Source of the DNA: Mytilus trossulus
Taxonomy: Eukaryota
Direction of reading: 5' to 3'
Assembly: GCF_036588685.1 (NCBI RefSeq)
Contig: NC_086382.1
Span: 50,197,378-50,261,377, forward strand
DNA length: 64,000 bases
Shown here piece after piece: positions 4,613-64,000 of this stretch. The position numbers and the translations under genes were made by a program. The first letter of the stretch is position 1. Every line of letters begins with the position of its first letter. Under the pieces are notes generated by a model. The model did not search any database, was not told the DNA's origin, and saw nothing but the letters and a program-made list of their open reading frames with translations.

Positions 4613-5385
4613 ATTCAGACTATGTACCAGTGAGAAATATACAAGCCTTTCTATGGTATTTATTTGTACAATTCAGCTAGTCTTGACCTATTCATTTGTC
4701 TTAAAAAAACAGCCAGTTGTCACCTTCACTTCACACACACACACATATACGAATATCAATTATATGCTCACGATACATGTTGCATTGTTAAACTAATTAC
4801 GGTACGTGAAAATCAAGACTTGCATAAAAACTATCCCAATATTAGAGACAGTGGCGTCATTTTTCTTCAGAGCTTTCAGCTCTTTGATTATTAGTGTTTG
4901 AGAACTTTAAGTGGTCAATGATAAAGCTATGAAAAATCAAGAGAGAACATTTTCCCGCCACAATGTCAATGGCTAATATCTCGAAAACAAGCACATTGAC
5001 CCCTATAATTTTTTGGCTTTTTTAATTCCTCAATTAATCCCCTATCAATATACACGAGTTTTATGGTAAGTTATTTATTTTGAAACTGAGCAGCAAACAT
5101 CCTTAAAGAAGCTTTTTTATGTAACTATTTTTATGTTTGAAGAAGAGTTTTATGTTTTTTTTAAATGGTATTTATTTAAAGTTTTATTTGATGAAAAAGA
5201 GGATACAATAAGCTGTAGAAAGAAAAAAGATCAGTAAAATAGTATTTTTCATTAGAACTCTTTTAAAGTCTTTTACAATAAGAAAGCTGAAAACACAGTG
5301 AAAAAATAAAAATAATGACATTTTATGTCATCTAAAAACATCATGACTTGTGTGATCTATAATTCATAATATATGAATATTGCAG

Positions 5386-5550
5386 GTAAAATCCCAAATT
5401 CAGAAGACCTCTCAGCCAGTGTTGACCTCTGTATCAGTTGCTTGGCAACAGTTTGATACTCCGCCTCCAGTTCAAGCTCCACAACAAATCACAGCTCTGT
5501 TTAATGGCTCCAGACTTGTGGTATATGGATTTGTCAGCAATTGTAAAATG
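5386..5550 (+). CDS. Exon of VIT/vWA-family gene (VKSQIQKTSQPVLTSVSVAWQQFDTPPPVQAPQQITALFNGSRLVVYGFVSNCKM)
   Basis: Acceptor ttgcag|gta at 5385/5386, donor atg|gtaatt at 5550/5551. Phase 0 to 0, so in frame with neighbouring exons. Confidence 0.5.
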
Positions 5551-5708: not shown

Positions 5709-6781
5709 GTACATTTTACAATTTTGTTTTGTTATACATTGACAATTAACAAACTTACAGACAAATCAGACAATTATTTCATAAGTCAGACTGTTTTCTT
5801 GTTAGATTAACCTTTTTTTTGTTCTAAAGAATAAAGTATCCTTTTTTTCACCCTTTTTATATCTATGTTGGGAGCCAATATAATGTAACTTTTTGTGCTA
5901 AGAATCATCAGTTTGAATTCACAAAAGTTACATTATGGAAAGTTGAAACACTGGGTCGATGCCACTGCTGGTGGACGTTTCGTCCCCGAGGGTATCACCA
6001 GCCTTGTAGTCAGTACTTCGGTGTTGGCATGAATATCAATTATATGGTCATTTTTATAAATTTTCTGTTTACAAAACTTAGAATTTTTCGAAAAACTAAG
6101 GATTCTCTTACCCCAGGAGTAGATTACCTTAGCCGTATTTGGCACATCTTTTTGGAATTTTGGGTCCTCAATGCTCTTACTTTGTATTTATTTGGCTTTT
6201 TAACTATTTTGATCTGAGCGTCACTGATGAGTCTTATGTAGACGAAACGCGCGTCTGGCGTATAACATTGTAATCCTGGTACTTTTGATAACTATTTAAG
6301 AATCATTACTTTTAAAGATCTCACATAAACAACATTACATATATTAAACTTTTAACAGGGATTTCCAATGTTTGTGCAGACATATTACCAAATTTGACAT
6401 GTAAATTGATCACCCTGATATAATACATGAATATGTAATGTATTCTTTATGGACATATTTCTTGTTTAGGTGAATTATTATTTTGTTTTTCACAAATCAT
6501 AATATATTGTTCCAAAATGATAACTTTAAATAGCTTTCCATTAACTTCAGTATTCTATTGCAAATTTTAGTATATTGACTGCCAATATATTAGAGTTATG
6601 CCCCTTGAAATGATTTTTTTTTAAAGCCTCTAATAGTATATAGTTATATATACCATGAACTTATACAATGATGTGAAAGATCAAAGATAGGTTATGTTCT
6701 CTATCATTTATATAACTGGTTTGCCTTCAAATGAATATAATATGTACACATATAAACCATGTTTTACTGTTTTTTATAAAG

Positions 6782-6862
6782 GCTACTTTAAAGGCAGAGA
6801 TTGGTGGCCAAGAAATATCTACTGTTGTCTCTACGTCGGAGCTCAGTACTACTCAAGGACAG
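6782..6862 (+). CDS. Small Ser/Thr-rich exon (ATLKAEIGGQEISTVVSTSELSTTQGQ). Alternative acceptor at 6793/6794
   Basis: Polypyrimidine tract plus ataaag| acceptor, donor cag|gtaagg at 6862/6863. 81 nt, phase 0-0. Its 3' end and donor are the founding unit of the downstream 60-bp tandem array. Confidence 0.3.
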
Positions 6863-7576
6863 GTAAGGATAACAAGAAATATCTACTTTTGTCTCTACAT
6901 CTGAACTCAGTACTACTCAAGGACAGGTAAGGATAACAAGGAATATCTACTGTTGTCTCTACATCTGAACTCAGTACTACTCAAGGACAGGTAAGGATAA
7001 CAATAAATATCTACTGTTGTCTCTACATCTGAACTCAGTACTACTCAAGGACAGGTAAGGATAACAAGGAATATCTACTGTTGTCTCTACATCTGAACTC
7101 AGTACTACTCAAGGACAGGTAAGGATAACAAGAAATATCTACTGTTGTCTCTACATCTGAACTCAGTACTACTCAAGGACAGGTAAGGATAACAATGAAT
7201 ATCTACTGTTGTCTCTACATCTGAACTCAGTACTACTCAAGGACAGGTAAGGATAACAAGGAATATCTACTGTTGTCTCTACATCTGAACTCAGTACTAC
7301 TCAAGGACAGGTAAGGATAACAAGAAATATCTACTGTTGTCTCTACATCTGAACTCAGTACTACTCAAGGACAGGTAAGGATAACAAGAAATATCTACTG
7401 TTGTCTCTACATCTGAACTCAGTACTACTCAAGGACAGGTAAGGATAACAATAAATATCTACTGTTGTCTCTACATCTGAACTCAGTACTACTCAAGGAC
7501 AGGTAAGGATAACAAGAAATATCTACTTTTGTCTCTACATCGGAGCTCAGTACTACTCAAGGACAGGTAAGGATAA
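6812..7576 (+). repeat. 60-bp minisatellite, about 12.7 copies (unit aaatatctactgttgtctctacatctgaactcagtactactcaaggacaggtaaggataacaag)
   Basis: Direct tandem copies seen in the sequence. Each copy carries the exon 3' end plus the caggtaagg donor. Copies differ by single bases (aagaaat / aaggaat / aataaat / aatgaat). Confidence 0.9.
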
Positions 7577-7910: not shown

Positions 7911-7991
7911 AATCTTCACAGACTGACTGCTAAAGCAATAATCAGAGACTGGGAAGATGGAGTACTCTCCCCTGATAGTATTGACCATCAG
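7911..7991 (+). CDS. Exon of VIT/vWA-family gene (NLHRLTAKAIIRDWEDGVLSPDSIDHQ)
   Basis: Acceptor tttttttcttgcag at 7910, donor cag|gtaaaa at 7991/7992. 81 nt, phase 0-0. Confidence 0.5.
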
Positions 7992-8574
7992 GTAAAATTA
8001 AATGAATAACGTAGAATCTGAACTTTAGTTTGGATGTGAATCTTAACAGTCAGTTACTAATTTCACAAAATTTCTTACAATAAAAAATGCTTGTAAGTCA
8101 CATTCACATTTAAGTACAACACTAAATTTCATTTACGTTTTATTAATTGTTTTTTGAAAAGAGGAGAAAATTTTCAGTATGTTAACTGACAAGACTTAGT
8201 GTTAATTGAGACCCCTGCTACCAAAGATGATATTTGCTGCTGCTCATGATTTATCAGCCAATCATACAGCATTCAGGATTTAGAGCATTTGGCTTTGAGT
8301 CAATAAATGTGTGTGAGCAGGGTAAGATGTTGTCCTGCACAGACAACTAGTGATCTTTATCTTGTTAAAAGTCATGCCCAAGATGTCATTCTATTACAAA
8401 ACAGTGTTCATATTTGTATAGCAGTTTAACCTTTACATCCTTATTTGCTGAAAATGAAAGTTCATGTTATAACTAAAACACCAGCTGCAAAATTGCATCT
8501 AGTATCCAAGCTCTTTATTTTGAGACATTGAAATTACTGAGTCAGTTGCTGAATTACTCTAGGAGGTATTATAT

Positions 8575-8823: not shown

Positions 8824-8925
8824 TTGAAGAAGATGGACATGAAAGACTATATAATAGAACTGAGTAAGAAATACTCTATAGTCACTCAGCTGACAAGTTT
8901 TATAGCCGTGGAGAAAAGAGAAAAG
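8824..8925 (+). CDS. Exon of VIT/vWA-family gene with ITIH/VWA5A-like motif (LKKMDMKDYIIELSKKYSIVTQLTSFIAVEKREK)
   Basis: Acceptor ttttttttgcag at 8823, donor aag|gtaata at 8925/8926. The 'YS.VT.LTSF.AVE' pattern recalls the conserved C-terminal heavy-chain motif of inter-alpha-trypsin-inhibitor / VWA5 / PARP4 proteins (from memory). Confidence 0.55.
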
Positions 8926-9465: not shown

Positions 9466-10966
9466 GGGGATAGGATCTTTATCAGGACTCCAGGACAGAC
9501 TTGGGGTCAATTACATTGGAATGTAATTAATTAAATTACACATTACATTGCAAAAATGGTCAATTACATCAATTACACATTACACTGTTTTTGAAATGTA
9601 ATTAATTAAGTTACAATTACTTTACTAAAGTAATTAATTAAATTACACATTACATTTCGTCATGGTATTTTTTAACAATATTATACATGTATAAATAATG
9701 CATGTGTAAAATATTCATGTAAGCATAGTTTAAGCGTTGCATTATTGATAATCATTAGCTATTTTAATGTTTTGTCATTTAGTCTGCATCTCTTTGACAG
9801 CAATTCTAAATAGCTTTTCGGTAGCTAATGTGGCAGATATTGCTTGATCAGAACATGGAAGTTCTATGATCAGAAGATCATCATATTGATAGGAGAGGGA
9901 ATTGGTTCCTATTAACTTGCCAATACATCAAGGGGTATTTTGACATCTCAGAAATGGAAGTCATTTGAATTAAACAGAGTTTAAACAAAGATATTATACA
10001 TAAATCATAAATAAATTTGTTTACATTAAAAATATCAAAAAGTGTGCTTGTCATAATATTGAAAATAATTTTTAGTACAAATAATGTATGCATAATGTTT
10101 AAATATTATCAATATTTTGCTAATTAGATAAAAATACATGTAACAGTGGCATAGCCCCTGGACATTTTAATCTCATTAATTGCTTTGTTTTTACAGCTAT
10201 TAATTTTTATTTCTATAATCCTTTTGTGTCTACTTATTTGACAAAATGATAGTGTACAGTGATTTTAAATTCTAAATGAACTGTCTAAGAAAGATTTTTA
10301 ACAGTGACACTTTGTTTTTTGTTTAACAAGGTGATTAATTACTTATCAATCGATTTAGTTAAAAGATCTTTCTTAAAAACTGAACACTAATATATGATTC
10401 TCACATTTTTTTAAATTATAATTAAGAATAATTATTAAAGAAAACATCTGTAGGTCAAATAAATATTAATATACATTGTAACTTCAGTATAAATTATAGA
10501 CTTCATATTTTGAAAAAAGTATGTGATATCAATATTTGAAAAACAAGTACTATTTTACAATTTTATTTATTAAACACAAATCCTCATCTTTAAGTTTAAC
10601 ACCATAAAAGTATATGTAATTGAAATGTAATTCAAAAGTAATTGAGCATTACATGCTTTTTTCAATGTAATTAATTAAATTACCATTACATGATATTAAA
10701 AAAATGCTCAATTACACATTACATTCAATTACATGGAAAATTGTAATGCATTACACTTAATTACCATTACATTTTCAATTACCCCATCCCTGCTCCAGGA
10801 TCGGGTGTTTTTAAGCTCAGGATTTCGGGATTGACCCTTTCAGAATCCATGAATTCTTCTTTGCGAATTTCGGGACCTCAGGATTTTGTGTTTTTAAGCA
10901 CTGGATTTCAGGATTACGTTTTTCCAAGCCCGGGATTTCGGGATCAGGACCCCTCCTATCCCCCCG
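9466..10966. mobile_element. TIR element (termini gggggataggatc… / …gatcaggacccctcctatcccccc) with subterminal 'gtaattaattaaattacacattacatt' and 'caggatttcgggat' repeats
   Basis: Terminal inverted repeats seen. Solo ends of the same family at 15150-15345 (+) and 47787-47966 (-). Confidence 0.6.
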
Positions 10967-11500: not shown

Positions 11501-11528
11501 TGTTATGTTAAAATTTGACTTGATTAAG

Positions 11529-11805
11529 GATGAAGTGCTTCATGCTGATGGACCATCAATACTGGAATTGGTTTCTGATGAAGATGTGGATACTTTGCAG
11601 TATTTAGGATGGGAAGGGGAAGTGGAACATTCTTATTATGAAATTGGCGACATGGAAGTGGAAGAGACTTATGATGAAGTTGTCGACATGGATATGGAAG
11701 ATACTGATGAAGAAGTTGTCTACATGGATAGGAAAGATTCTTACAACAAACGTTATGGCGCAGATATGGAAGAAGCCGCTCCAATGCATGATCTTTATTT
11801 ATGTG
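11529..11805 (+). CDS. Acidic exon (…SDEDVDTLQYLGWEGEVEHSYYEIGDMEVEETYDEVVDMDMEDTDEEVVYMD…). Either a host-gene exon or the ATG-initiated first exon (ATG at 11505) of the nested 14-3-3-like gene
   Basis: Open frame from 11478. Possible acceptor aag| at 11528 or start codon at 11505. Strong donor tgtg|gtaagt at 11805/11806. Ends in phase 1, compatible with both 13667 and 20982 acceptors. Confidence 0.35.
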
Positions 11806-12595
11806 GTAAGTTGATTTAGGAACAGAATTTTAATGCGATAGGTACCCAATTCAAAATCACTTACTGTTTTATGTCCATATTTTCGTGTCTTATCTCAAAA
11901 CTGCTACATGTAGTAGTGCTACAAGGTATTTTTATAGAGAGAAATCACATATTTGATGTCAGAGCCCATTTCTTTAAAAAAACAAATCCCTTGATTTAAC
12001 CCTCTATGATATTTGAAGATTGACTGTCATATGCAAGTAAATTTCTATCATTTATTTATAAAAAGACATATTTGTTTTAAAGATTTTAAGAATGATTCTG
12101 GCCTCACGATCATAAAACTTTCTAGCATGATTTTTGTACTTTGACTCGACAATCAACCAATCAAATTTCTGGATTTCATGTTTAAAGCATGATTTTTGTG
12201 CTCAGAGCACTGAGCAATATTTTGTGCCTTCAAGGCCTGGTTATATGTATAAAAAAAATGAACTTTGGTTGTGATATTATAATTGTATCTTATAAAATAT
12301 ATTTTAAAAATTGGAATTTATATAGAATTCTTGAAAATGCTCTGATATAATTTGAACGTTTGCAGCCTACATGTTTTGTCTGATGAGTTGAGAATACTGT
12401 GATGTGCAATAAATCTATATATATTAAGGATGAGTAATTTGAAGATCTGATTGATGTACACAACTTTAGACACATATAAGTAGAGTCTTTAGTAAACAGC
12501 CAATTTATATAAAAAAAAATGGGGGGAGGGGGGGGGGGGGGTAGCAAAAATCATTGTCATTGTCAATCCCTTCTAAAAATTAATAAAACAAGAAT

Positions 12596-13205
12596 GTGTC
12601 CATAGTACACGGATGCCCCACTTGCACTATCATTTAAAATGTTCAGTGGACCCTGAAATTGGGGTCAACTTTAAATTGGTATTAAAATTAGAAAGATCAT
12701 ATCATGGGGAACATGTGCACTAAGTTTCAAGTTGATTGGACTTCAACTTCATCAAAAACTACCTTGACCAAAAACTTTAACCTGAGCTTCACACTATCTT
12801 TTTCTTTGTTCAGTGGACCATGAAATTGGGGTCAGTACTTTAATTTGACAGTAAAATTAGAAAGATCATATCATAGGGAACATGTGTACTAAGTTTCAAG
12901 TTGATTGGATTTCAACTTCATCAAAAACTACCTTGACCAAAAACTTTAACCTGAGCTTCACACTATCTTTTTCTTTGTTCAGTGGACCATGGAATTGGGG
13001 TTAGTACTTTAATTTTACAGTAAAATTAGAAAGATCATATCATAGGGAACATGTGTACTAAGTTTCAAGTTGATTGGAATTTAACTTCATCAAAAACTAC
13101 CTTGACCAAAAACTTTAACCTGAAGTTGGACGAACGGATGAACAGACGAACGGAGGCACAGACCAGAAAACATAATGCCCCTCTACTATCGTAGGTGGGG
13201 CATAA
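12596..13205 (-). mobile_element. Interspersed repeat family 'tatgcccca..tac.atagta.aggggcattatg … ggttaaagtttttggtcaaggtag … gacacattcttgtt', inverted copy with internal ~155-bp triplication
   Basis: Other copies at 27055-27320, 31820-32470 (triplicated), 44126-44410 and 45930-46180. Confidence 0.6.
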
Positions 13206-13666
13206 TAATAAAAGTTTCTTGTTTGTTTAAAAAAAAAAAATTTTCATATAGGTAAACTTGTGTTTGATTCTATAATCTTACACTTCATCGACAAAATAAC
13301 TTTATTCCATTTCAGTTAAAAGCATGTATCCTAATATTCTCAACCTTATACTAAAGTTAAAATTAACTATATTTTTGACACCCCAATATATACTACTGGC
13401 CCGAGACCACAATTATCCCCATTTGATTTTTATTGTCTTCCTCTTTTGACAGTACTTTTATTCATATAAATCTTGTAAGTGTAGTTTATTCTCTTTTCTT
13501 GTCAATAATAGCTTGTATTTCCAGCAGTCTTAAGGGAGTCTATTTTCAGAGCCCTTTTTTTTAACAGTTATTGATCTGGAATACTAAAATAAGAAAAAAA
13601 CTGTGTATTTTGACCACATGTCTTTCCTTTGAGAAACATAAGCATTAGGTGATATTATTGTTTCAG

Positions 13667-13815
13667 AAATTATGGAACAAATAATTAAGGTTGAGTCAAC
13701 ACATGTGGATTTAACAGCCAAAGAGAGAAACTTGTTGTCAAATGTATTAAAAAGAGAAATCTTATCTAAAAGAACTTTTTTGAAAAATAATGGCAGTAAT
13801 GAACACAAAGGAAAG
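13667..13815 (+). CDS. 14-3-3-like protein, exon encoding helix-2/3 region (E)IMEQIIKVESTHVDLTAKERNLLSNVLKREILSKRTFLKNNGSNEHKGK
   Basis: Acceptor tttcag at 13666, donor aag|gtatag at 13815/13816. 'ERNLLS' and the following basic patch align with 14-3-3 '[26 protein letters not shown]'. Confidence 0.55.
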
Positions 13816-14192
13816 GTATAGGAATAGAGCTCTATTTTGTTTCAAGTTGTTTAAAGGTAAAAATTAGGTCATGAGACTTTAAATATAGGTCCATGCTGTT
13901 TTCATAATTTTACAATTACATTCCAGGAGTTTTAATATTCTATTTTTTTTTTATTTTATCTTTTTGTTATTCAAAACTGATAATTAAAAAAATAGTCAGG
14001 GATTTTATTAGTTTTTAAAAAAAGTCAGGGATTTTTTTTTTTTTTATAAAAGAATCAAGGATTTTATTAGTTTTTAAAAATGATATTATATTTTTAAATA
14101 TTTTTTTAAAGACATTTTTGTGGTTTCATCTCTTTAACTATATAATATAATATTCAGTTTAATTATGTTAACCGAAGGTTTTCATTTTGTAG

Positions 14193-14293
14193 ATGAATTT
14201 GAAGAATATTTGCCATAGTACTTTAGACATTTTAGATAGAAAACTAATTCCTTATGCAGAAAGTGAAAAATCCAAAGTTTTCTACTATAAAAT
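14193..14293 (+). CDS. 14-3-3-like protein exon (MNLKNICHSTLDILDRKLIPYAESEKSKVFYYK-)
   Basis: Acceptor ttttgtag at 14192, donor aaat|gtaagt at 14293/14294. Aligns with 14-3-3 'ELQDICNDVLELLDKYLIPNA..ESKVFYLKM'. Confidence 0.6.
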
Positions 14294-14530
14294 GTAAGTT
14301 TTACAAAATTTCCTTCTATTTAAATACACCAAAAGTTAAATTCTTGTAATGTAAAATTGGATTTTTTTGTCCTCTTAGATTTTTTATTTTATAAATTAAA
14401 GTTTAACTAAAAGCTTTATAAATTACTGTTCTGTAGGTGCTTTGAAGTAAAAATCATTAATTGATCCAAAAGTGTTTTGAGATTGGCATAAAGATCAACT
14501 TTGTTTTTATAGCTGACTATATGTGGAATG

Positions 14531-14648
14531 GGCTTTGCTCATTGTTGAAGGTCATACAGTGACCTATAGTTGTTAACTTCTGTGTCATTTGGTCTCTTGT
14601 GGAGAGTTGTCTCATTGGCAATCATACCACATTTTCTTTTTTATATTT
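14531..14648 (+). mobile_element. SINE/MITE-like dispersed repeat (B orientation: gctttgctcattgttgaag…ctcattggcaatcataccacat)
   Basis: Same ~140-bp family recurs at 26921-27050 and 31701-31815, and in reverse at 5571-5708, 9428-9465, 15378-15430, 18591-18705, 19438-19475, 20051-20185, 40601-40660 and 47279-47345. Confidence 0.7.
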
Positions 14649-14667
14649 TGACCTTCCAAAATTCCAG

Positions 14668-15026
14668 GAAAGGAGAGTATTACCAATACTTAGCCGACTA
14701 TTACCAATACTTAAACAAAGCTGTCACAGGAAATGCTAAAAATGAAGCGACAGAAAAAAGTTTAGCAGCATATAACATTGCAAGTGATACAGCATCTACA
14801 GGTCTACCACCTACTCATCCTGTACATTTAGATTTAGCACTTAGTTTGTCTGCGTTTTATCACGATGTTCTCAACTCCCCAGATAAAGCATGTAGTATAG
14901 CAAAAACAGCATTTGATCAGGCAATATCAGAGCTTGATTGTTTAAGTGAAGAGAGCTATAAAGATTCAACGTTAAAAATGCAGTTGTTAAGAGATAATTT
15001 AACACTGTGGTCTGCTGAAGGTGAAG
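14668..15026 (+). CDS. 14-3-3-like protein, main exon ([21 protein letters not shown]…[76 protein letters not shown])
   Basis: Acceptor attccag at 14667, donor gaag|gtatgt at 15026/15027. Near-collinear with 14-3-3 helices 5-9 (…[60 protein letters not shown]…). Confidence 0.65.
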
Positions 15027-16954
15027 GTATGTTTAGAGTAGTTCGGTTAAGTTATCATAATTACTGTCTTGTCTGCATCAAAATTGCAGAAGTGCAAGAA
15101 AGTACCAAAATCATAACTTAGGCATGCTTAGACATTGATGGGGGGTGCATGACCTTTTTCGGGACGTTGGGATGGGTGGTTTTTTAACTTGGGATTTCAG
15201 GATTGATCCTTTCGGGATCCTGGAATTTTGTTTTCGAATTTGGGAATGTCAGGATTTAAATTTCTTTTCAAGATTTCATGTTTTTAAGCTTGGGATTTCA
15301 GGATCAGGACCCCTCTTACCCCCACCCCCTCTCATTAATAGCACCAACAACAATTGCTCATAAAGTATAAAGGAATTAGATGTGATATGATTACCAATGA
15401 GGCATCTATCCATATAAACCAAATGTAAAGATGTAAGCAATCTTTGGCAATGAGTAAAATCTGATCCATAAGGCAGTTTATATGAATGGCCTCAGTACAA
15501 ACAAAATGCTCAACCATTTAAATAAAGTAAAGCAATGGCCTGATTTACACTTGCAAGGTCTGAGAGTATATGATCATCTCAGCTAGGATTCGCCTTAATT
15601 TGACTTTATTTTTGTCTCACCTTGACAGAGTCAAAAAGCGACACATAGGTATGCTGTTTTCGGCATCAACAATGTATTAGTTTGTGATAAGGTCTAGTTT
15701 ATGGTGAACCACAAGTGGTAGGTCAATCATATTTGGTATGCATTTGTATAAGCATTGGCACATCTCATTTCCATAGAGATTTTTTGGCCCTGCCCCCTCA
15801 GTCATGGTCTATTGACTTCAACAACTTTTTCTTATTTTACATGTATTAGTTTGTGATTAAGTCAGTTTATGGGGAACCACAAGTGGTAGGCCAATGATAT
15901 TTGGTATGCAGTTGTATAACTAATGGCATATCTGATTTCATGGAAATAATTTGGATCCGCTCCCTAAGTCATGGTCTATTGACTTTGAAATTTTTTCTAA
16001 GTTATCATGTATTGTTTTGTGATTAGGTCAGTTGAATGGGAACCATTAGTGGTAGGCCAACGCTAATTAGTATTGGCACATCTCATTTCCATGTAAAATA
16101 TTTGGCCTCCCCCCTCAGTCACAGTTTAATATCTTTGAAACTTTTCTTAGTTTACATGTACATGTATTAGTTTGTGATTAGATCAGTTTAAGATGAACTT
16201 CTATTGGTAAGTCAATGATATTTGGTATGCATTTGCAAGTATCGTTTCCATGGAAATTGTATAGCCCCACCCCCCTCTTCATGGTTCATTGACTTTGAAA
16301 CGTTTACATAGTTTACAAGTTAATGTGTGTATTTAGGTTTGGGAACGACTTATACTAAGTCAATGGTATTTGGTATGCAGTTGTATTAGCATTGGCACAT
16401 CTCATTTACATGGAGATTGTTTAGCCATGTAACTCAGTCATGTTTCATTGACTTTGAATATTTGCATAACTTGTGTAAGATGTTAAAGTATTGCTATTTT
16501 GATTTCAACATTTGCATAATCAAAATTACAAAAAAGCGAGACATATCTCTGTGATAACAGTTCATCTTAGTTCATTAATTAATATTAATTTTTCATTTTT
16601 TTGGTGGCTCAGATACTCAGAAATAGGTGAACCCTATTTAATTATTTGTTCCCCTGACTTGTTTCCTCCGACATTGACCTTAATTTGTGGTACATTTTTT
16701 GTGGTTAGTTTCTTTTATAAAAAAGACTATATCATTGAGTATTGAATAATAACCATTTGTACGGGTTCATCTTGCCATGACATAATTTTCATGGTTCATT
16801 GGTCAACATTGAGTTTTAATGGTTAAGACTGTTTCTCAGACATTATAAGAAATTAATCAGAGGAAGATTGTGAGATGTACATTTGTGTCTTGCATAGTTC
16901 AACTGAAATTGAATTTATTTGTCACTGATCTTTGATAAACATGTAAACCATCAG

Positions 16955-17543
16955 ATAGTCGACGTCACGTAAAATTGGCACCAAGATTTTGGTAAAAGTT
17001 TTCTTAAATATCAACCGCGTTTACTCCAGATCATGTTTTTTGATTGGCGGAATAAAAATCCAATCCAAATATATACTACTGTCCTACCTTTTATTGTGTT
17101 TGCACAGTGTAACCCTGACCTTCACAAAATCCAAGATTATTTTGTATGGTGGAATCCGACATTGTTATTACCGGAAGTGTCGCCGTGGAGTCCACATGCT
17201 CTCAATTTTCTTGTGTCTCTCGAAGCTGTTCGTCGTCTTTATGTGAAAAAGCGCGGGAAATCGTATCATCAATGACAATGATATTACCAGAGAGTAACGA
17301 ATGTTATGTAGTAAGGGATCCTCATAGAAACCAAGATGGCGGTTTTACAATGAAAACAATCTTGAAAAATATGAAGGTCAGGTTAATACAGTGCAAACAC
17401 AATAAAAGGTAGGACAGTAGTATATATTTGGATTGGATTTTTATTCTGCTAATTGAAAAACATGATCGCGAGTAAACACGGTCGATATTTAAGAAAATTT
17501 TAACAAAAATCATGATGCCAATTTTATGTGACGGCGACTATAA
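16955..17543. mobile_element. Foldback / inverted-repeat element (arms 16955-17112 and 17384-17543, about 155 bp, 270-bp spacer)
   Basis: Arms are near-perfect reverse complements (atagtcgacgtcacgtaaaattggca…ttttattgtgtttgcac). Confidence 0.75.
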
Positions 17544-17544
17544 G

Positions 17545-17770
17545 ACTGTCAATACTGAGGTTGTGAGTTTGAATCCTGCAAGGAGCAGGTGCACTTGACT
17601 GCAATCTTAATTGACTTGGGTTTTCAGTTTTTACCAAAATGTAGTTCTCTCAAGGCAGTCTGGCTTCCACCACCAGTTAAAACTGCAACACAATATCATA
17701 ATAGTGTGTTAAACACCAATCAATCAATCTTTGAAACTATTAAGTTTATGCAATACCTGTTTGCATATAA
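17545..17770 (+). mobile_element. SINE-like repeat with tRNA-T-arm-like box (tactgaggttgtgagtttgaatcc), copy 1
   Basis: Second copy in the same orientation at 18300-18500. The two copies bracket the actin-like segment. Confidence 0.5.
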
Positions 17771-17846: not shown

Positions 17847-18227
17847 ATGATGGCACTGATAGGCTAACATTTGGGACAGTAGAAAAGCAAAGTGCCACCA
17901 GGTTGGATGATTCAGACGAAGATTCTAATGAATTATTAGACTATGGTTCTTCATATTCATCAAGTGAGGATTTTGAGGAAGATGGAATTATTGCAGAAGC
18001 CACGAGTATGATTTCTGAGGAAGGCCAATATAATTCAAGCTCTGATGAAGAAATGCAGACTTTAGTATTAGATGCTGGATCATTCATGATGAAGGCAGGA
18101 TTTGCCGGAGATGATCATCCTAGAGCTAACTTCCCCACAGCTGTAGGTAGACCTAGACATCAAGGGGTGATGGTTGGAATGGGACAGAAGGATGCATATG
18201 TTGGATTTGAAGCCTGTGGAAAATCAG
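17847..18227 (+). CDS. Actin-like N-terminal segment preceded by an acidic/Ser-rich extension (…[62 protein letters not shown]). Gene fragment, cassette exon or pseudogene
   Basis: About 70% identity over some 55 residues to actin '[57 protein letters not shown]'. Possible acceptor ttttag at 17846, donor cag|gtataa at 18227/18228. Similarity ends at the donor. Confidence 0.5.
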
Positions 18228-18299: not shown

Positions 18300-18500
18300 C
18301 TTATTAGTCGATACTGAGGTTGTGAGTTTGAATCCCACATTGGGCAGGTGTACTGGACTTCAACCTAATTGACTCAACATTCACAGTTTTCATATTGAAT
18401 GTCTTGGTTATATCTGTGCACTCAGGCTTCCTCCAGCAACAAAAACTGACCACCACAAAAAAGCATACTAAGCATAAAAGTTGGGTTAAACACAGAGGAA
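18300..18500 (+). mobile_element. SINE-like repeat, copy 2 (tcgatactgaggttgtgagtttgaatcccacattgggcaggtg…)
   Basis: About 75% identical to 17545-17770. Confidence 0.5.
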
Positions 18501-20981: not shown

Positions 20982-22939
20982 ACATCTTGATGAAATATAG
21001 CAGGTCTCCAACCTCATCTTATGATGTAGATACAATAGAATCTTCCAATGAAGAAACAGTACCTGATGTACATCGAAAAGTAAGAGGAATGATTACAGGT
21101 GAACCACAATCCTCACCATATCCATCAAACATGTTATTTTTAGGTTCACCAAGAAAAATACCACCAACACAATCAGTTGCACCACCACCAATGGGATCCC
21201 AAAGGTTTTCTGATTGTTTATCAAAAGTAATACAACCAGTTACATCAACACTTCTGTCAGAAGAAGTGGAAGTTAAAGCATCAACATTTCATTCAAAAAG
21301 GATATCTTATGATCCACTAGGAGGAATGCCACCTTCACAACCACCAAGAGGAATGCCATCTTCACAACCACCAAGAGGAATGCCACCTCCACAACCACTT
21401 GGAGGAATGCCACCTCCACCACCACCAAGAGGAAAACATGTTGATGTGTCTTCATCAGTAATACCACCTGATCCATCAATACAATTTTACATTCCAATGT
21501 CTCCTGCACAAGCAATTCCAGAAGATACAGTTTATGATGCTTTTCCACCTCCTCCACCCCCTCTACAATCAACAGGAGGAATGCCACCTCCAGGGCCCCT
21601 ACAATCAAGAGGAATGCCACCTCCAGGGTCCCTACTATTAACAGAAATGCCACCTCCAGCACACCTACAACCAAGAGGAATACTACCTTCATTTCAATCA
21701 AAAGGAATGCCACCTTCAGCACATCTACAATCAAAAGGAATGCCACCTCCAGTGCCACTGCAATCAAAAGGGGTGCCACCTCCAGCGCCCCTACAATCAA
21801 GAGGAATGCCACCTCCAGCGCACCAACAATCAAGAGGAATGCCACCTCCAGCACACCTACAACCAAGAGGAATACTACCTTCATTTCAATCAAGAGGAAT
21901 GCCACCTCCAGCGCCCCTACAATCAAGAGGAATGCCACCTCCAGCGCACCAACAATCAAGAGGAATGCCACCTCCAGCACCTCTACAATCAAGAGAAATG
22001 CCACCGCATCTTTTCTCAACAAAAGGAATGCCACCACTTCCACCGCCTTTGTCATCACTAGGAATGCCAGTTATGAGCTCAGCATCAGAAATGCCACCAC
22101 TGCATCAAAAGGGAAAACCACAACCACTGTTACAGTCATCCAAACAAATGGACTCTTCAATGATTGGTGCACCACCACCTCCACTACTAGAAGAATTAAA
22201 CGATATGCTACCGGAACGAAGATATGGTCCTCCAGGGGGAATACCACCACCGCCACCACCACCAACAGGATTACCAATTCCAAAAACACCATTTGGTGTG
22301 GGGGGACTGTATGTTCCACCACAGGGACCACGAGAACCACCTCCATCATCAATACAAATGCAACCTTCCCCACAACAAATGTCAAAGAGTAGGTCTTTTC
22401 AACCAAAACAAAATCAACCCATTTCATCATCATCACCAAGAGCACAATTACTTTCAGACATTTCAGCTGCAACTTCAGCTAAAAAAATGAGTGGTTTAAC
22501 TGCTCCTGGAGGATCAGCTCGTGTTTTCGGGAGTATAACAAAATCACTATCAATAATTGAGAAGGATATACCTAGCCTGTTAGATTCTGCTATACCAGAA
22601 AGAAAATACCATAGGCTAGGGATGAATTCTGTAATAAAACAACATGCAATAGCAAGTGAATACAAAAGGGAAATGCCTCTCACTAAAGACAACCAAGATA
22701 CGTTTGTCTACAAGGAGAAGCAGAGGGCAACTTCATCACATTTTGGTTCATTTAATTTGGAAGAGAAATCCACAGATCTAGAACAGCCGATATATTTTGG
22801 TTCCTTTGGTTTGCAAGAGAAATCCACAGAACAGCCAGCATATGAATGTAGTGTAAAATCTACCAAAATTCTTGACCAGTACACTGACATGACTAGACCT
22901 GATAGCATTCAAAAACAAAGTAATACTGAAGAATTAATG
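20982..22939 (+). CDS. Giant proline-rich exon: FH1-like poly-Pro tracts, 13 x 39-bp in-frame repeats (GMPPPAPLQSR), a WH2-like motif (PRAQLLSDISAATSAKKM) and a Ser-rich tail
   Basis: Acceptor ctctattttgtag at 20981, donor aatg|gtaagt at 22939/22940. 1958-nt open frame. The ORF's hydrophobic N-terminus (20774-20981) is most likely intron. Confidence 0.6.
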
Positions 22940-23151
22940 GTAAGTAAAAAGATACCTGTACTTATAATATGAATGTCAAATGTATTATTAATTTGAACCA
23001 ATCTTAGATAATGGCAAATGAAAAAAATAGTTTAATTTGAACCAATTTTAGATAATATCAAAGGAATAGTTTGTTTAATCTGAACCAATTTTGAAAACTT
23101 AATTTAAAAGTGTTGTTTTTATAATTTGCAAAATCTCATTTCCACCATCAG

Positions 23152-33956: not shown

Positions 33957-35290
33957 TTAACATCCTGATATGGTCACTTGATATATCTTGGCCTCCTTGG
34001 TTGTTCTGCCTAATGGTCTGCCACATCCTATGTAGAGTTGTCCTCTTGGAGAGAATGCAAGAGAAAGTGGTAACATTATGTTATTGTCACTTGTTTTATA
34101 ACTTGTCATCAGCAGGCCAGCATTAGTCAGGATATAAAGTGCATGAGAACCTGGATCAGCTACTATAACATTGTCTCTAGGTGTTATCACTATGACTGTT
34201 GGATAGAATGATCTCTCTTTGTTGATCTCTGTATCTCCTGTATAGATATTGATGATATCCCCACCCTGTCCTAACACTACTACTCTACCCCTGACATCAC
34301 TTACTTTATCCACCACATGAATATTTCCATTACTGGTACTGGTTATTCTCCCTGGAAAGATGAATAAAGGTTGTTTATGTTGATCATGTTCATACACTCT
34401 CTCATGGTCTCCTTTCTGATTCATGCATATTACCACTCTTCTTCCACGTTCAGGGTAGTCACTATTAACACCTGCTACTATAACTTTATTGTCACTGGTG
34501 ATATGGACTGCTGTAGCAAGGAATGATGACATATTATATGCCGAGTCTGTTAATGTACCTGTATACTATTACTGATTTGTTTCAGTCTTGATTCCACTGT
34601 AGTTATAAGTAAAATATTTGATTGAGTAACAGCCATATCATGAACCTTCATATTAAAGTTGGAAAGTATGTTCAGTTTATTTTCTCCTGGCTTTACTTTC
34701 TGTATTACATTATCCATCCCACTCCCTATCCACAATGTTGTATCAGGATCAGTACACATATATCCTACAGCTGAGAGGTTTGTTTGATGTGTTTCATTTA
34801 TTACTATGGCTACACCCAATTCAGCAGTGGGTTTCTGATCACTTAGTAAACCTCCAACATTGGACTGAGTGATCACCCCTGGATTAAATATTGGAATAGA
34901 TTGGTATTCTTCTTTTGTAATTGGAGTTTGCGCTTCAATGGATTTTTCAATCCTTTTCATTTCTTGAAAGTACTTTGTAGTGTCGGTAGTATTTATGAAA
35001 TCTTCCATTTCACCATTTTTGTAGTCTAATTCATTTATGGAGCTGTTGATGGTATCGAGATCCTGTTCAATGGATTGTAGAATATCCTTCTTAGACTGAT
35101 CCAAGTCAGTTACAAGCTTGTCAATGTGCTGGTCAACTGCTTTGTGTAAAACTTTCCCATGGGTAAGAATATCTTGCTTCACTTTTGAATGCTTTAAAGT
35201 TTTATCAACTATAAGTTTATCTAAAATATCTTTTTTCATAACAACATTTTTTTTATCCTTTTGTATTTCACTTTGACCTTCCTTCAGTTT
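33957..35290 (-). pseudogene. TRIM-NHL family gene fragment (coiled-coil plus NHL repeats). N-terminus replaced by a satellite-bearing element; internal frameshift near 34533-34549
   Basis: ORFs 34550-35347(-) and 33957-34532(-). NHL-type repeats (…VIVAGVNSDYPERGRRVVICM…, …YILTNAGLL…, …QLYIGCG…). No RING/B-box. Homology to the TRIM-NHL satellite boundary stops abruptly at 35290. Confidence 0.55.
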
Positions 35291-35295
35291 GTCCA

Positions 35296-37222
35296 TTTTT
35301 ATATGACCGCAAATTTTGAAAAAAATTTCGTCGTATATTGCTATCACGTTGGCGTCGTCGTCGTCGTCGTCCGAATACTTTTAGTTTTCGCATTCTAACT
35401 TTAGTAAAAGTGGATATAAATCTATAAAATTTTATCACAAGGTTTATGACCACAAAAGGAAGGTTGGTATAGATTTTGGGAGTTTTGGTCCCAACATTTT
35501 AGGAATTAGGGGCCAAAAGGGCCCAAATAAGCATTTTCTTGGTTTTCGCACTTTAACTTTAGTTTAAGTTAATAGAAATCTATGAAATTTTGACACAAGG
35601 TTTATGACCACAAAAGAAAGGTTGGGATTGATTTTGGGAGTTTGTAGGAATTAGGGGCCAAAAAAGGGCCCAAATAAGCATTATTCTTGGTTTTCGCACA
35701 ATAACTTTAGTTTAAGTAAATAGAAAATAATGAAATTTAAACACAATGTTTATGACCACAAAAGGAAGGTTGGGATTGATTTTGGGAGTTTAGGTCCCAA
35801 CAGTTTAGGAATTAGGGGCCAAAAAGGGACCCAAATAAGCATTTTTCTTGGTTTTCGCACCATAACTTTAGTATAAGTAAATAGAAATCTATGAAATTTA
35901 AACACAAGGTTTATGACCATAAAAGGAAGGTTGGTAATGATTTTGGGAGTTTTGGTCCAAACAGTTTAGGAATAAGGGGCCCAAAGGGTCCAAAATTAAA
36001 CTTTGTTTGATTTCATCAAAATTGAATAATTGGGGTTCTTTGATATGCCGAATCTAACTGTGTATGTAGATTTTTAACTTTTGGTCCCGTTTTCAAATTG
36101 GTCTACATTAAGGTCCAAAGGGTCCAAAATTAAACTTCGTTTGATTTTGACAAAAAATTAATCGGTTGGGTTCTTTGATATGCTGAATCTAAAAATGTAC
36201 TTAGATTCTTGATTATCGGCCCAGTTTTCAAGTTGGTCCAATTAAACTTTGTTTGATTTCATCAAAAATTGAATAAATGGGGTTCTTTGATATGCCAAAT
36301 CTAACTGTGTATGTAGATTCCTCATTTTTGGTCTTGTTTTCAAATTGGTCTACATTAAAGTCCAAAGGGTCCAAAATTAAACTTAGTTTGATTTTAACAA
36401 AAATTGAAATCTTGGGGTTCTTTGATATGCTGAATCCAAACATGTACTTAGATTTTTGATTATGGGCCCAGTTTTCAAGTTTGTCCAAATCAGGATATAA
36501 AATTATTATATTAAGTTTTGTGCAATAGCAAGTCTTTTCAATTGCACAGTATTGCGCAATGGCAAGAAATATCTTATTGCAAAATATTGTGAAATAGCAA
36601 TTTTGTTTTTAATTAGAGTTATCTTTCTTTGTCCAGAATAGTAAGCAAGAAATATCTAATTGTAAGAATTTTTTTTATTTGGAGTTATCTTTCTTTGTCC
36701 AGAATCAACTTAAATCTTTGTTATATATACAATATACAATGTATATTCACTTTTTACTACCAACTGATAAATTAAAATAATCTTTACCATTCAGTGATAA
36801 CAAGCAGTTTTTTTACATCTTAATATTTTATGATGTATTTAAATGAGTAGTAATTGTTGCAAACTCCATTAGAAATTTTAATTGAGATTAGTTTTGGAAT
36901 TAGGGAAAGGGGGATGTGATTAAAAAAATTGGGTTCAATTTTCTCATTTGAAATTTCATAAATAAAAAGAAAATTTCTTCAAACATTTTTTTGAGAGGAA
37001 TAATATTCAACAGCATAGTGAATTGCTCTAAGAGAAAACAAAAATTTTAATTTCATTAGAACACATTCATTCTGTGTCAGAAACCTATGCTGTGTCAACT
37101 ATTTAATCACAATCCAAATTTAGAGCTGAATCCAGCTTGAATGTTGTGTCCATACTTGCCCCAACCGTTCAGGGTTCAACCTCTGCGGTCGTATAAAGCT
37201 ATGCCCTGCGGAGCATCTAGTT
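35296..37222 (+). mobile_element. Composite satellite-bearing element, copy 2. Abuts and truncates the TRIM-NHL fragment
   Basis: Same head, satellite blocks and tail as copy 1. Confidence 0.7.
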
Positions 37223-61989: not shown

Positions 61990-64000
61990 TTGGTCCTCAA
62001 AGTCATTGAGAAATACGAAGAGATTATCAAAATAATAGATAAATATCCAGGATCAAAAATTACTGTACTCGAAACACCTATTTACTCTATTAGAAACTGG
62101 AATAAAAACAGGGTCACAAAAATCCAGACACATTTGAAGAGCAGGATAAAGAACTAGAGCGTCAACTATTCACATTAAACGGAAGAATACGTGAAATAAA
62201 CAAACATATAGGTAGCCACTCACCTGAATTTTCCTCAGATATAAGCAACACCAGTAAATATCACTGTGGAAAAGACAGAAAACTCAAAACAACGAGAAAC
62301 TACGAGTTCGGACTGTATCAAAACGGGATACACCCAGGCGAGCTACTAGCAAAAAACTGGCTTAAAAAATCTCAGAACAGGCCAAGAGAGATTGCTGGGA
62401 AACTGTACACAAACCACCATTAAAATAAGTTCATTGCAGGCAGATTTAGTCAGCGTGGGTTTTTCCACACTACACTAAATCACTATGTTTGCAATGACAC
62501 TTATTTTACTATTTGTACTACTCAGCATACCAACACAACATAGTAAACCATGGACCCATCAATAACTATTCCAACAACTACTTAATGCTAAACTACACCC
62601 AGCCGGTAGAAGACCAATCTGCCTACCTATCTGCAACACCAAAACCAAATATTTGCTCCTACTATTGATAACGCTAAGTGGAGACATCGAAACAAACCCA
62701 GGACCGCCAAAAAAAGAAACTGTATATCCCTGTGGTCTTTGCGAGCATCCAGTCACATGGAACTGTCGAGGGGTATGTTGTGACGGGTGCAACATCTGGC
62801 ACCACAACTCTTGCATAGAACTATGTTCAAAAAATTATGAACTCTTAGAAAAATCTAATGTACAGTGGATATGCTGCAAATTTGAAAGCATGAACATAAG
62901 CTCATTAACCTTTAGAAGCTATGAATTAGAAACATCAAATATATACGAACAAATAACCGGATTGGACTACACCATGGACTCAATATCATCAGTCTTCAGC
63001 CCACTGAAGTCAAGCAGCCCAAAGAGTGGAAACATGTCATCTCACAGCAAGACAAGGTCATCCATAAACCAAAGGAAATCACATCTCAGTAGCAATCCTT
63101 ACGAGATACCAGAAAAAAACAACCTCCGCATCATGACAATCAACTGCAGGAGCATAAAAGATAAAAAAAAAAAAAAAAAATTTGAGGCAGCACTCCACTA
63201 CTTGAAACCAGACATAGTATGCGCCACAGAATCATGGTTAAAAGGAATAAAACCAGGATCAAATCCAACAAAAGACGCCATAATGTCAAGCGAAATATTC
63301 CCCACCAACTATAATGTATACAGAAATGACAGAGGGACCCTTGGAGGGGGTGTATTTGTGCTTGTAGAGAAATCCATTACATCAGTCGAACAAACATCCT
63401 TAATTACTGATGGAGAAATTGAATGGGTAAAGATCAAAATAAAAAACAACAAAGACTTGCTAGTTGGATCTTTTTACATGCCACACAGAGATCAAAAACA
63501 CCTAAATGAACTACAAAATTCACTTGAGAAAGCCAGGACTAATGGAAACACCAATATCATTCTAACAGGAGATTTCAACTGCCCCGATATCATATGGGAC
63601 ACAGCAACAGCCTTGGACCAGACAGGGAAATCCAACAAGGACTAGTTGATATATCTGAAACATATAATCTGACACAAATACACACTTTACCAACTCGTGA
63701 AGGAAACCTCCTAGATCTTGTATTTGTTACGAACCCAACTCTAGTTAAATCCTCAAATAACGTACCAGGTATATCAGACCATGACATTATAATCGCCGAC
63801 CTGGAAACAAAAGTATACCATCAAAAAAGCTTACATCTACAAGAAGGCGAAATGGGACCAAATCACAACAGACCTTAAACACACCCTAGAAGAGGTCAAA
63901 GAAAAACATCATCAAGGAGCTGAGGTACATCAACTTTGGGACACCTTCAAAAGTCAGCTTCAAAAAACCATGATCACAAATATCCCGAACAAAGAAATAA
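61990..64000 (+). mobile_element. Non-LTR retrotransposon (LINE), 5' region. ORF with 2A-like peptide, PHD-like finger and APE-type endonuclease; continues beyond the window. Frameshifts near 63640 and 63850
   Basis: See CDS 62566-63645. Reading frame continues (ISDHDII… then …KAKWDQITTDLKHTLEEVKEK…) in shifted frames. Confidence 0.65.
62566..63645 (+). CDS. LINE ORF2 N-terminal part: 2A motif LLLLLITLSGDIETNPGP (62683-62706 = DIETNPGP), Cys/His PHD-like finger (CGLC…CCDGCNIWHHNSC), apurinic-endonuclease-like domain (LRIMTINCRS…PDIVCATESWL…GGGVFVLV…LTGDFNCPDIIWD)
   Basis: Open frame from the stop at 62563-62565. D(V/I)ExNPGP preceded by a Leu-rich tract is the canonical 2A 'ribosome-skipping' signature. 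The EEP-endonuclease motifs are typical of LINE ORF2. Confidence 0.65.
   Translation, partial: LFQQLLNAKLHPAGRRPICLPICNTKTKYLLLLLITLSGDIETNPGPPKKETVYPCGLCEHPVTWNCRGVCCDGCNIWHHNSCIELCSKNYELLEKSNVQWICCKFESMNISSLTFRSYELETSNIYEQITGLDYTMDSISSVFSPLKSSSPKSGNMSSHSKTRSSINQRKSHLSSNPYEIPEKNNLRIMTINCRSIKDKKKKKKFEAALHYLKPDIVCATESWLKGIKPGSNPTKDAIMSSEIFPTNYNVYRNDRGTLGGGVFVLVEKSITSVEQTSLITDGEIEWVKIKIKNNKDLLVGSFYMPHRDQKHLNELQNSLEKARTNGNTNIILTGDFNCPDIIWDTATALDQTGKSNKD

Follow-up and report, generated by a model that had tools for sequence, protein, structure and literature searches.

In a 64-kb window of the Mytilus trossulus genome (contig NC_086382.1; the window is the whole stretch of DNA that we analyzed, and all coordinates count from its first base), three exons on the forward strand encode most of a 14-3-3 protein inside an intron of a second gene on the same strand, a PARP4-like gene with vWA domains that we refer to as the host. 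The first exon of this 14-3-3 module (13667-13815, 149 nt, phase-1 acceptor and phase-0 donor) corresponds to exon 2 of 14-3-3 epsilon genes and encodes helix B, helix C, and the start of helix D. The second (14193-14293, 101 nt, phase 0 in and phase 2 out) corresponds to epsilon exon 3, carrying the end of helix D and the start of helix E, and closes on the same split ...YYKM as the mollusc epsilon genes. The third (14668-15026, 359 nt, phase 2 in and phase 1 out) corresponds to epsilon exon 4, with helices E-I, and ends in the donor AAG/gtatgt (a slash marks the exon boundary or split codon) at the ancestral ...GE G/ position. All three have AG and GT borders, leaving 6/6 splice dinucleotides intact. 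Together they total 609 nt (3 x 203), opening with two nucleotides of a split codon and closing with one left over, and their open frame runs over 203 codons from EIMEQ to TLWSAEGE.

A 14-3-3 epsilon copy without its first and last exons

The module is a collinear but divergent 14-3-3 core that lacks the first helix, as a preliminary description of this DNA had proposed. Its match to Pfam family PF00244 scores 178.7 bits (cut-off 33.2; E = 1.7e-52) and extends over profile positions 13-223 of 223; the profile alignment that the same description had called for thus leaves only positions 1-12 uncovered, so that the first helix is the sole missing part. The best matching PDB structures are those of 14-3-3 epsilon, aligned from residue 22 (E 5e-58), and identity to animal epsilon proteins is 54-57%. 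The internal duplication mentioned in the description turns out to be a 21-nt in-frame tandem duplication in helix E (YYQYLAD / YYQYLNK, at 14678-14698 and 14699-14719 on the forward strand). Translation gave none of the stop codons or frameshifts that the description had named as possible signs of a dead fragment. Its two-nucleotide start (G/AA) and one-nucleotide end are likewise as we find them, and if the donor at 15026 is left unused, reading continues through 31 unrelated residues to the TAG that it had placed at 15119-15121 (forward strand). We also agree that a core without helix A is not the architecture of a standard 14-3-3 gene.

We searched all six frames of the window for the missing helix. 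A tblastn search with bivalve epsilon matched the three module exons and no helix-A exon, and a BLOSUM sliding scan with three helix-A peptide probes over the 64 kb returned nothing above shuffled controls. This agrees with the earlier statement that the N-terminal helix is not found upstream, and the window holds no upstream helix-1 exon of the kind that would point to an ordinary 14-3-3 gene. The best hit, EEVVYMDRKDSYNKRYG at 11709, reached a score of 26, where the null maxima were 19-32. Because it coincides with unit three of the 36-nt tandem repeat in an acidic host exon (described below), we reject it as a helix-A remnant and regard it as a compositional coincidence.

The canonical epsilon genes of Sinanodonta, Solemya, and Littorina served as references for the origin of the module. 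Each has its coding sequence divided into five exons by introns of phases 1,0,2,1; exon 1 encodes M1-D21 plus one nucleotide (G), i.e., the 21 residues of helix A, and exon 5 encodes the acidic tail. The module shares all four boundaries of exons 2-4 with these genes: phase 1 at D21/E22, with the G/AA split of Glu22; phase 0 in helix D; phase 2 at YYKM/K, where the codon is divided as YYK(AT/G); and phase 1 before the acidic tail, at ...GE G/gt. The YYKM/KGDY split and the ...GE G/ donor are identical between the module and the three mollusc genes, and the whole arrangement is the exon-intron structure of the epsilon lineage.

The module is almost certainly a DNA-level partial duplicate of a 14-3-3 epsilon gene, comprising exons 2-4 of five and lying in a phase-1 intron of the host. 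Exon 1 (helix A) and exon 5 (acidic tail) would either never have been copied or have since been lost. Because two introns are kept at their ancestral positions, the module is not a retrocopy, and we discard a processed pseudogene as an explanation. It resembles the epsilon (YWHAE) genes of molluscs and other animals in its Pfam family, in its fold (helices B-I), in the intron positions and phases of exons 2-4, and in K49, R56, K120, and Y128. It differs from them in lacking exon 1 and the acidic-tail exon and in being seated in another gene's intron. Its first exon falls 60 nt short of Sinanodonta exon 2 without loss of frame, and its C-D hairpin is shorter by about 15-20 residues; it also carries the 7-residue helix E duplication, the binding-pocket changes R127Q, N173S, and V176A, and 36 changes at positions invariant in 59 canonical proteins.

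This origin also accounts for what the preliminary description had called a perfect class 1-1 cassette. The phases at both ends do fit the host: a symmetric 1-1 module of 609 nt lies within a phase-1 recipient intron, with the donor at 11805 and the acceptors at 17847 and 20982 all in phase 1. The fit, however, reflects no special adaptation. Since epsilon introns 1 and 4 are both phase 1 in the three mollusc genes, any copy of exons 2-4 is class 1-1; the symmetry of the module is inherited from its parent gene, and the match to a phase-1 host intron is a one-in-three coincidence.

The host gene and the surroundings of the module

Upstream of the module, six exons (32-175, 5383-5544, 6776-6874, 7914-8003, 8830-8925, and 11529-11805) are collinear with a PARP4-like protein of Lingula that has vWA domains (P0121), and all six are open with GT-AG borders. 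The last of them, the acidic exon H6 (11529-11805, forward strand, phase-0 acceptor, phase-1 donor GTG/gtaagt), aligns with P0121 residues 370-399 at 47% identity (E 2e-4 to 8e-6). It directly follows the exon that ends in EKREK; after ...SFIAVEKREK the host reads KDEDMSSEGPRIEAILAEEDVDILPYIGWK where Lingula reads KDEVLHADGPSILELVSDEDVDTLQYLGWE. In the Lingula gene, a phase-0 acceptor likewise follows ...EKREK at this position, and the next exon begins DEDMSSEGPRIEAILAEEDVDILPYIGWK, matching DEVLHADGPSILELVSDEDVDTLQYLGWE in the host. Judged by this collinearity, H6 is an ordinary host exon and no part of the 14-3-3 copy. The preliminary description had instead taken it for an ATG-initiated exon preceding the module, but the ATG at 11505 is intronic, upstream of the H6 acceptor. 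Its first reading of the locus, a nested gene in which an acidic extension replaces helix 1, finds no support in that form, as the acidic exon belongs to the host. Its observation that the donor at 11805 leaves one nucleotide stands.

Tandem repeats occur in and around the host exons. Within H6, a 36-nt unit repeated 3.5 times (11618-11743, forward strand) encodes E/D-rich units (EIGDMEVEETYD / EVVDMDMEDTD / EEVVYMDRKDSY) and lengthens the exon well past its Lingula counterpart. Further upstream, a 64-nt unit repeated 12 times (6809-7576, forward strand, 97% matches) combines the 3' terminus of a host exon (...EISTVVSTSELSTTQGQ) with the adjoining GT donor and the opening bases of the intron, and thereby places twelve additional copies of the donor straight after the genuine one; splicing from a wrong donor would alter the reading frame, since 64 is not divisible by 3.

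Downstream of the module, a large Pro-rich exon (20982-22972, forward strand) has a phase-1 acceptor and is open to a stop at 22970-22972. In Lingula, a large Pro-rich open reading frame (ORF) lies about 1.7 kb downstream of the H6 equivalent, and the interval between the two contains neither 14-3-3 nor actin sequence. The host plausibly continues into 20982-22972, judging from this arrangement, and the 14-3-3 block would then be a later insertion in the mussel lineage. Among known proteins, those matching the acidic exon, the exon at 17847, or the exon at 20982 were limited to the Lingula PARP4-like protein and one ENA fragment, and these covered the vWA-proximal part only; the protein collection held no Mytilus host protein. 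The Pro-rich exon itself has 27/33-nt repeats that encode GMPPP...PLQSR units, a formin-FH1-like polyproline, especially at 21314-22005 and 22439-22504. It also contains a WH2-like string, RAQLLSDISAATSAKKM; Pfam gives no match, and we do not retain the assignment.

Between the module and the Pro-rich exon, 2.8 kb downstream of the former, lies a second phase 1-1 exon (17847-18227, forward strand), whose end we correct here to 18227, for a length of 381 nt. It encodes an acidic/Ser-rich stretch followed by an N-terminal fragment of actin, residues 2-65 (tblastn 72% identity, E 1e-23; Pfam Actin 3.8e-12). No further actin exon was found in the 64-kb window. This exon is a possible splice partner of the donor at 11805 or that at 15026. 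The donor at 11805 leaves one nucleotide and the acceptors at 13667, 17847, and 20982 each need one, which puts every combination in frame; the chains H6+module+17847+20982, H6+module+20982, and H6+module+16027 are all open. The preliminary description was right that the module lies on the host strand, within a host intron, and in phases compatible with the host, and that the acceptor at 20982 needs the single nucleotide that the module leaves.

Public annotation already contains the module. Once spliced, it is 100% identical to RefSeq XP_063402143.1 (“14-3-3 protein epsilon-like”, 208 aa, on the 78-Mb chromosome record), which is modeled as a separate nested gene with Met 13672 as its start and a splice from 15026 to 16027. 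The start codon (13672-13674, forward strand) has A at -3 and G at +4, a good context, and falls at canonical V24, the canonical M23 having been replaced by I. The terminal coding piece (16027-16049, forward strand) adds 7 codons, G/GT CAG ... CAT TAG, which read GQLNGNH before the stop, and it sits in a ~168-nt tandem array at 15672-16470, i.e., in satellite sequence.

Other repeats are scattered over the window. Another array of nearly the same unit length occupies 12640-13123 (forward strand), and units like it recur near 27.0, 44.1, and 46.0 kb; these ~168/169-nt arrays may resemble the satellite-carrying mobile elements of bivalves. Two dispersed copies of another repeat, at 10785-10963 and 15157-15323, are 81% identical and in direct orientation (forward strand), with a third copy at ~47.7-48.0 kb. 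Between the module and the actin exon is a MITE-like inverted repeat (16955-17541) with 189-nt arms, 87% complementary, around a 209-nt spacer. The actin exon itself is flanked by 60-nt direct repeats (17548-17607 and 18307-18366, forward strand), which are 83% identical and contain a tRNA-T-arm-like string, GGTTGTGAGTTTGAATCC; ARAGORN makes no tRNA call at these repeats. A retrotransposon ORF runs from 62566 to 63875, to the window end (forward strand; Exo_endo_phos 8.6e-10, Endonuclease-reverse transcriptase 1.7e-6, an apurinic-type endonuclease domain). On the reverse strand, two neighboring long ORFs at 33960-35380 have weak similarity to a TRIM coiled-coil (5.7e-4) and NHL repeats (7e-3), below the Pfam cut-offs, and are probably a TRIM-NHL-type gene.

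Predicted structure and binding surfaces

An AlphaFold model of the module, made with 59 canonical homologues, has a predicted local distance difference test score (pLDDT) of 83.7 and a predicted template modeling score (pTM) of 0.82. It contains eight helices (B to I) in place of the nine of a 14-3-3 monomer, helix A being absent. Confidence dips at residues 41-50, which form the shortened C-D hairpin, and at residues 91-100, where the duplication lies. Compared with 14-3-3 crystal structures, the model reaches a TM-score of 0.82-0.85.

14-3-3 proteins dimerize through their N-terminal region, helix A of one subunit lying against helices C/D of the other; helix A and the tip of the C-D hairpin are the two sides of this contact. 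In the module, the deletion at the tip of the C-D hairpin comes on top of the absence of helix A, and this joint loss suggests that the protein would be a monomeric scaffold for which canonical dimerization is unlikely. The pocket is altered as well. Four basic residues of 14-3-3 coordinate phosphate, namely K49, R56, K120, and R127 (PMC6193947). The module keeps three of the four (K49, R56, and K120), along with Y128, and lacks the complete set: the residue equivalent to R127 of zeta (R130 of epsilon) is Q in both copies of the duplication. In addition, N173S and V176A alter the groove. With these three replacements, phosphopeptide binding would be expected to be weakened or re-specified rather than canonical.

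There is a precedent for 14-3-3 proteins of this general shape. A human epsilon splice variant without helix A was described by Han et al. 2010 (pmid 20417184, as cited in PMC5794190), and the title of that report credits it with one activity that does not need dimerization. In Bufo gargarizans, epsilon isoform X2 (P0077) begins MVESMKK.... The vertebrate helix-A-less isoform, which starts at Met23, is like the module in that it begins in exon 2 and has no N-terminal helix. However, it is an alternative transcript of a normal and otherwise unchanged gene, whereas the truncation of the module is fixed in a separate, strongly diverged copy that is also changed in the dimer-contact hairpin and in the binding pocket.

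Fate of the copy

We compared the module with six mollusc epsilons as a proxy for its parent. Relative to their consensus, the module differs at 79/195 aligned residues, and at 61 of these the six molluscs are invariant. In a neutral simulation that starts from a canonical epsilon parent (minimal ancestral coding sequence, transition and AT bias, run to the observed protein divergence, n = 2000), 0.25% of the runs were stop-free at the end, as the module itself is. Each of its three length changes preserves the frame: exon 2 has lost 60 nt, and exon 4 has gained 21 nt and lost 6 nt. Of the columns that are universal in the 59 canonical proteins, the module keeps the residue at 69%, compared to 43% elsewhere (Fisher p = 0.004). 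None of the stops, frameshifts, or broken splice sites that would characterize a decayed pseudogene is present. The open frame, the in-frame indels, the intact splice sites, and the skew in conservation are together unlike a neutrally decaying relic, and from the sequence they argue that selection acted on the module, as a spliced coding unit, for most of its existence.

The reading that we favor, with a probability of roughly 40%, is that the module yields a stand-alone 14-3-3-like protein without helix A. The copy would have long been kept as a spliced coding unit, and its most likely product would be the short RefSeq protein, 208 aa from Met 13672 with eight helices, in effect a version, fixed in the genome, of the vertebrate epsilon isoform with its start at Met23. 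Several observations weigh against this reading. The parent had to be represented by proxies, as no Mytilus epsilon was among the 120 entries listed, and the simulation presumes that this parent was canonical. The 36 altered positions are otherwise universally invariant in 14-3-3 proteins, and the GC content of module exons 2-3 is 0.25-0.28, i.e., intron-like, with a GC at third codon positions (GC3) of 0.25. The module protein (P0001) remains a singleton at identity levels of 90% and 50%; about 15 billion proteins yielded neither an orthologue nor a transcript-derived protein, and nothing orthologous from M. edulis or other mussels appeared. At the 3' end, no AATAAA or ATTAAA occurs within ~950 nt after the RefSeq terminal piece, and the 7-codon last exon may have been supplied by the gene finder to complete the model and not mark a real 3' end. 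Finally, the kept acceptor (13666) and donor (15027) imply splicing to exons on both sides, which fits a cassette of the host at least as well as a stand-alone gene. Among further searches, phmmer against 1.84 billion representatives found no closer relatives than ordinary 14-3-3 proteins, metagenome scans with two module-specific codon-degenerate patterns had zero matches, and a literature search on Mytilus 14-3-3 variants returned nothing relevant. The negatives from protein collections carry little weight, because the host protein is likewise absent from them.

Part of the same evidence would be expected if the module were an unexpressed relic, an unused partial duplicate whose open frame is a leftover and whose RefSeq protein was produced by a homology-driven gene finder. 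The module lacks exon 1, exon 5, and a promoter of its own; the protein is a singleton with no orthologue or transcript-derived match; both metagenome scans were empty; the base composition is background-like; R127Q is accompanied by 35 other changes at universally invariant positions; and the modeled 3' exon lies in a satellite repeat. We nonetheless consider this explanation unlikely, on a par with the host cassette discussed next. A frame as open as this one was rare under neutral simulation at the observed divergence, all three indels are multiples of three, all six splice sites are intact, retention is skewed toward universal columns, and the fold is predicted with confidence. A recent death of the module after long use is possible.

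We regard it as unlikely, though a serious contender, that the module is instead a cassette of the host, as in the second reading of the preliminary description, with its exons alternatively included in the PARP4-like mRNA between the donor at 11805 and the exon at 17847 or 20982. This would place a monomeric 14-3-3-like domain within a vWA-acidic-...-Pro-rich protein and could do without a new promoter or start codon; if the host promoter drove expression, this would also explain selection on a promoter-less fragment. Consistent with this, every junction is in frame and the three chains listed above are open, the module and the host share one orientation, and the strong acceptor (ttattgtttcag/A) and donor (AAG/gtatgt) that came with the module survive although its coding sequence has diverged heavily. 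The actin fragment, also foreign, lies nearby in a phase 1-1 exon of its own. On the other hand, RefSeq has a separate gene and no host isoform with 14-3-3, the phase compatibility is inherited with a one-in-three prior, and the collections contain no protein that joins the vWA/acidic host to 14-3-3, a weak negative given that the host protein is absent too. A more elaborate form of this idea, which we find improbable, is that one phase-1 intron harbors phase-compatible partial copies derived from two housekeeping genes (exons 2-4 of 14-3-3 epsilon and an actin N-terminus fused to an acidic stretch), that both are spliced into the host mRNA as cassette exons, giving a vWA-acidic-14-3-3(monomeric)-actinN-polyproline protein, and that selection on this chimera keeps the 14-3-3 frame open.

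A separate question is how the fragments arrived, and here capture by a mobile element (Helitron/Helentron-like or similar) that delivered both the 14-3-3 and the actin pieces would be compatible with any of these fates. Two unrelated gene fragments do lie in one orientation within 4.5 kb, the ~168/169-nt arrays at 12640-13123 and 15672-16470 flank the module, and the 60-nt direct repeats flank the actin exon. Against such a capture, which strikes us as rather improbable, element termini were not found, the abundance of these repeats in the window means that their adjacency may be chance, and the sole repeat pair that brackets the module (10785-10963 and 15157-15323) has a genuine host exon, the acidic H6, between its copies as well. 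For this last reason, we reject a composite transposon carrying the module alone. Least credible of all is an ordinary 14-3-3 gene with its helix-A exon and promoter beyond the examined DNA: intron 1 of bivalve epsilon genes does span 8-9 kb in Sinanodonta and Solemya, but no helix-A-like peptide rises above chance in the 13.6 kb upstream or in the whole window on either strand, six collinear host exons take up the upstream stretch, and the module lacks the acidic-tail exon as well as part of the C-D hairpin.

Two known routes to new genes offer comparisons for this locus. Under Patthy's rule, exons are shuffled by the intronic insertion of symmetric class 1-1 modules, and the classical 1-1 modules are extracellular domains. 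The present locus is similar in having a multi-exon module between phase-1 introns, inserted in sense orientation into a phase-1 intron with its junctions in frame; it differs in that the symmetry was merely inherited from the parent and that inclusion in the host mRNA is putative. Nested intronic or chimeric genes also arise from partial duplicates, e.g., Drosophila jingwei. There, too, a partial copy of a housekeeping gene lies in or next to another gene and has the potential for a new transcript, whereas at this locus both the transcript and the chimeric protein are putative.

What was already known is that the locus is annotated in RefSeq and that a helix-A-less epsilon isoform exists in vertebrates. 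If the module is neither expressed by itself nor spliced into the host, it would be another lineage-specific gene fragment in the mussel genome and a warning about homology-driven gene models. Inclusion in the mRNA of the PARP4-like host would make it a rare case of intracellular, multi-exon class 1-1 shuffling, caught at an early stage, with the actin fragment beside it as a second candidate. If it is expressed, it would be a naturally fixed 14-3-3 without helix A in which the other half of the dimer contact has been trimmed too and the phosphate pocket altered. Such a protein would provide a ready-made test of what a monomeric 14-3-3 scaffold is able to do, and it would show how a promoter-less partial duplicate survives.

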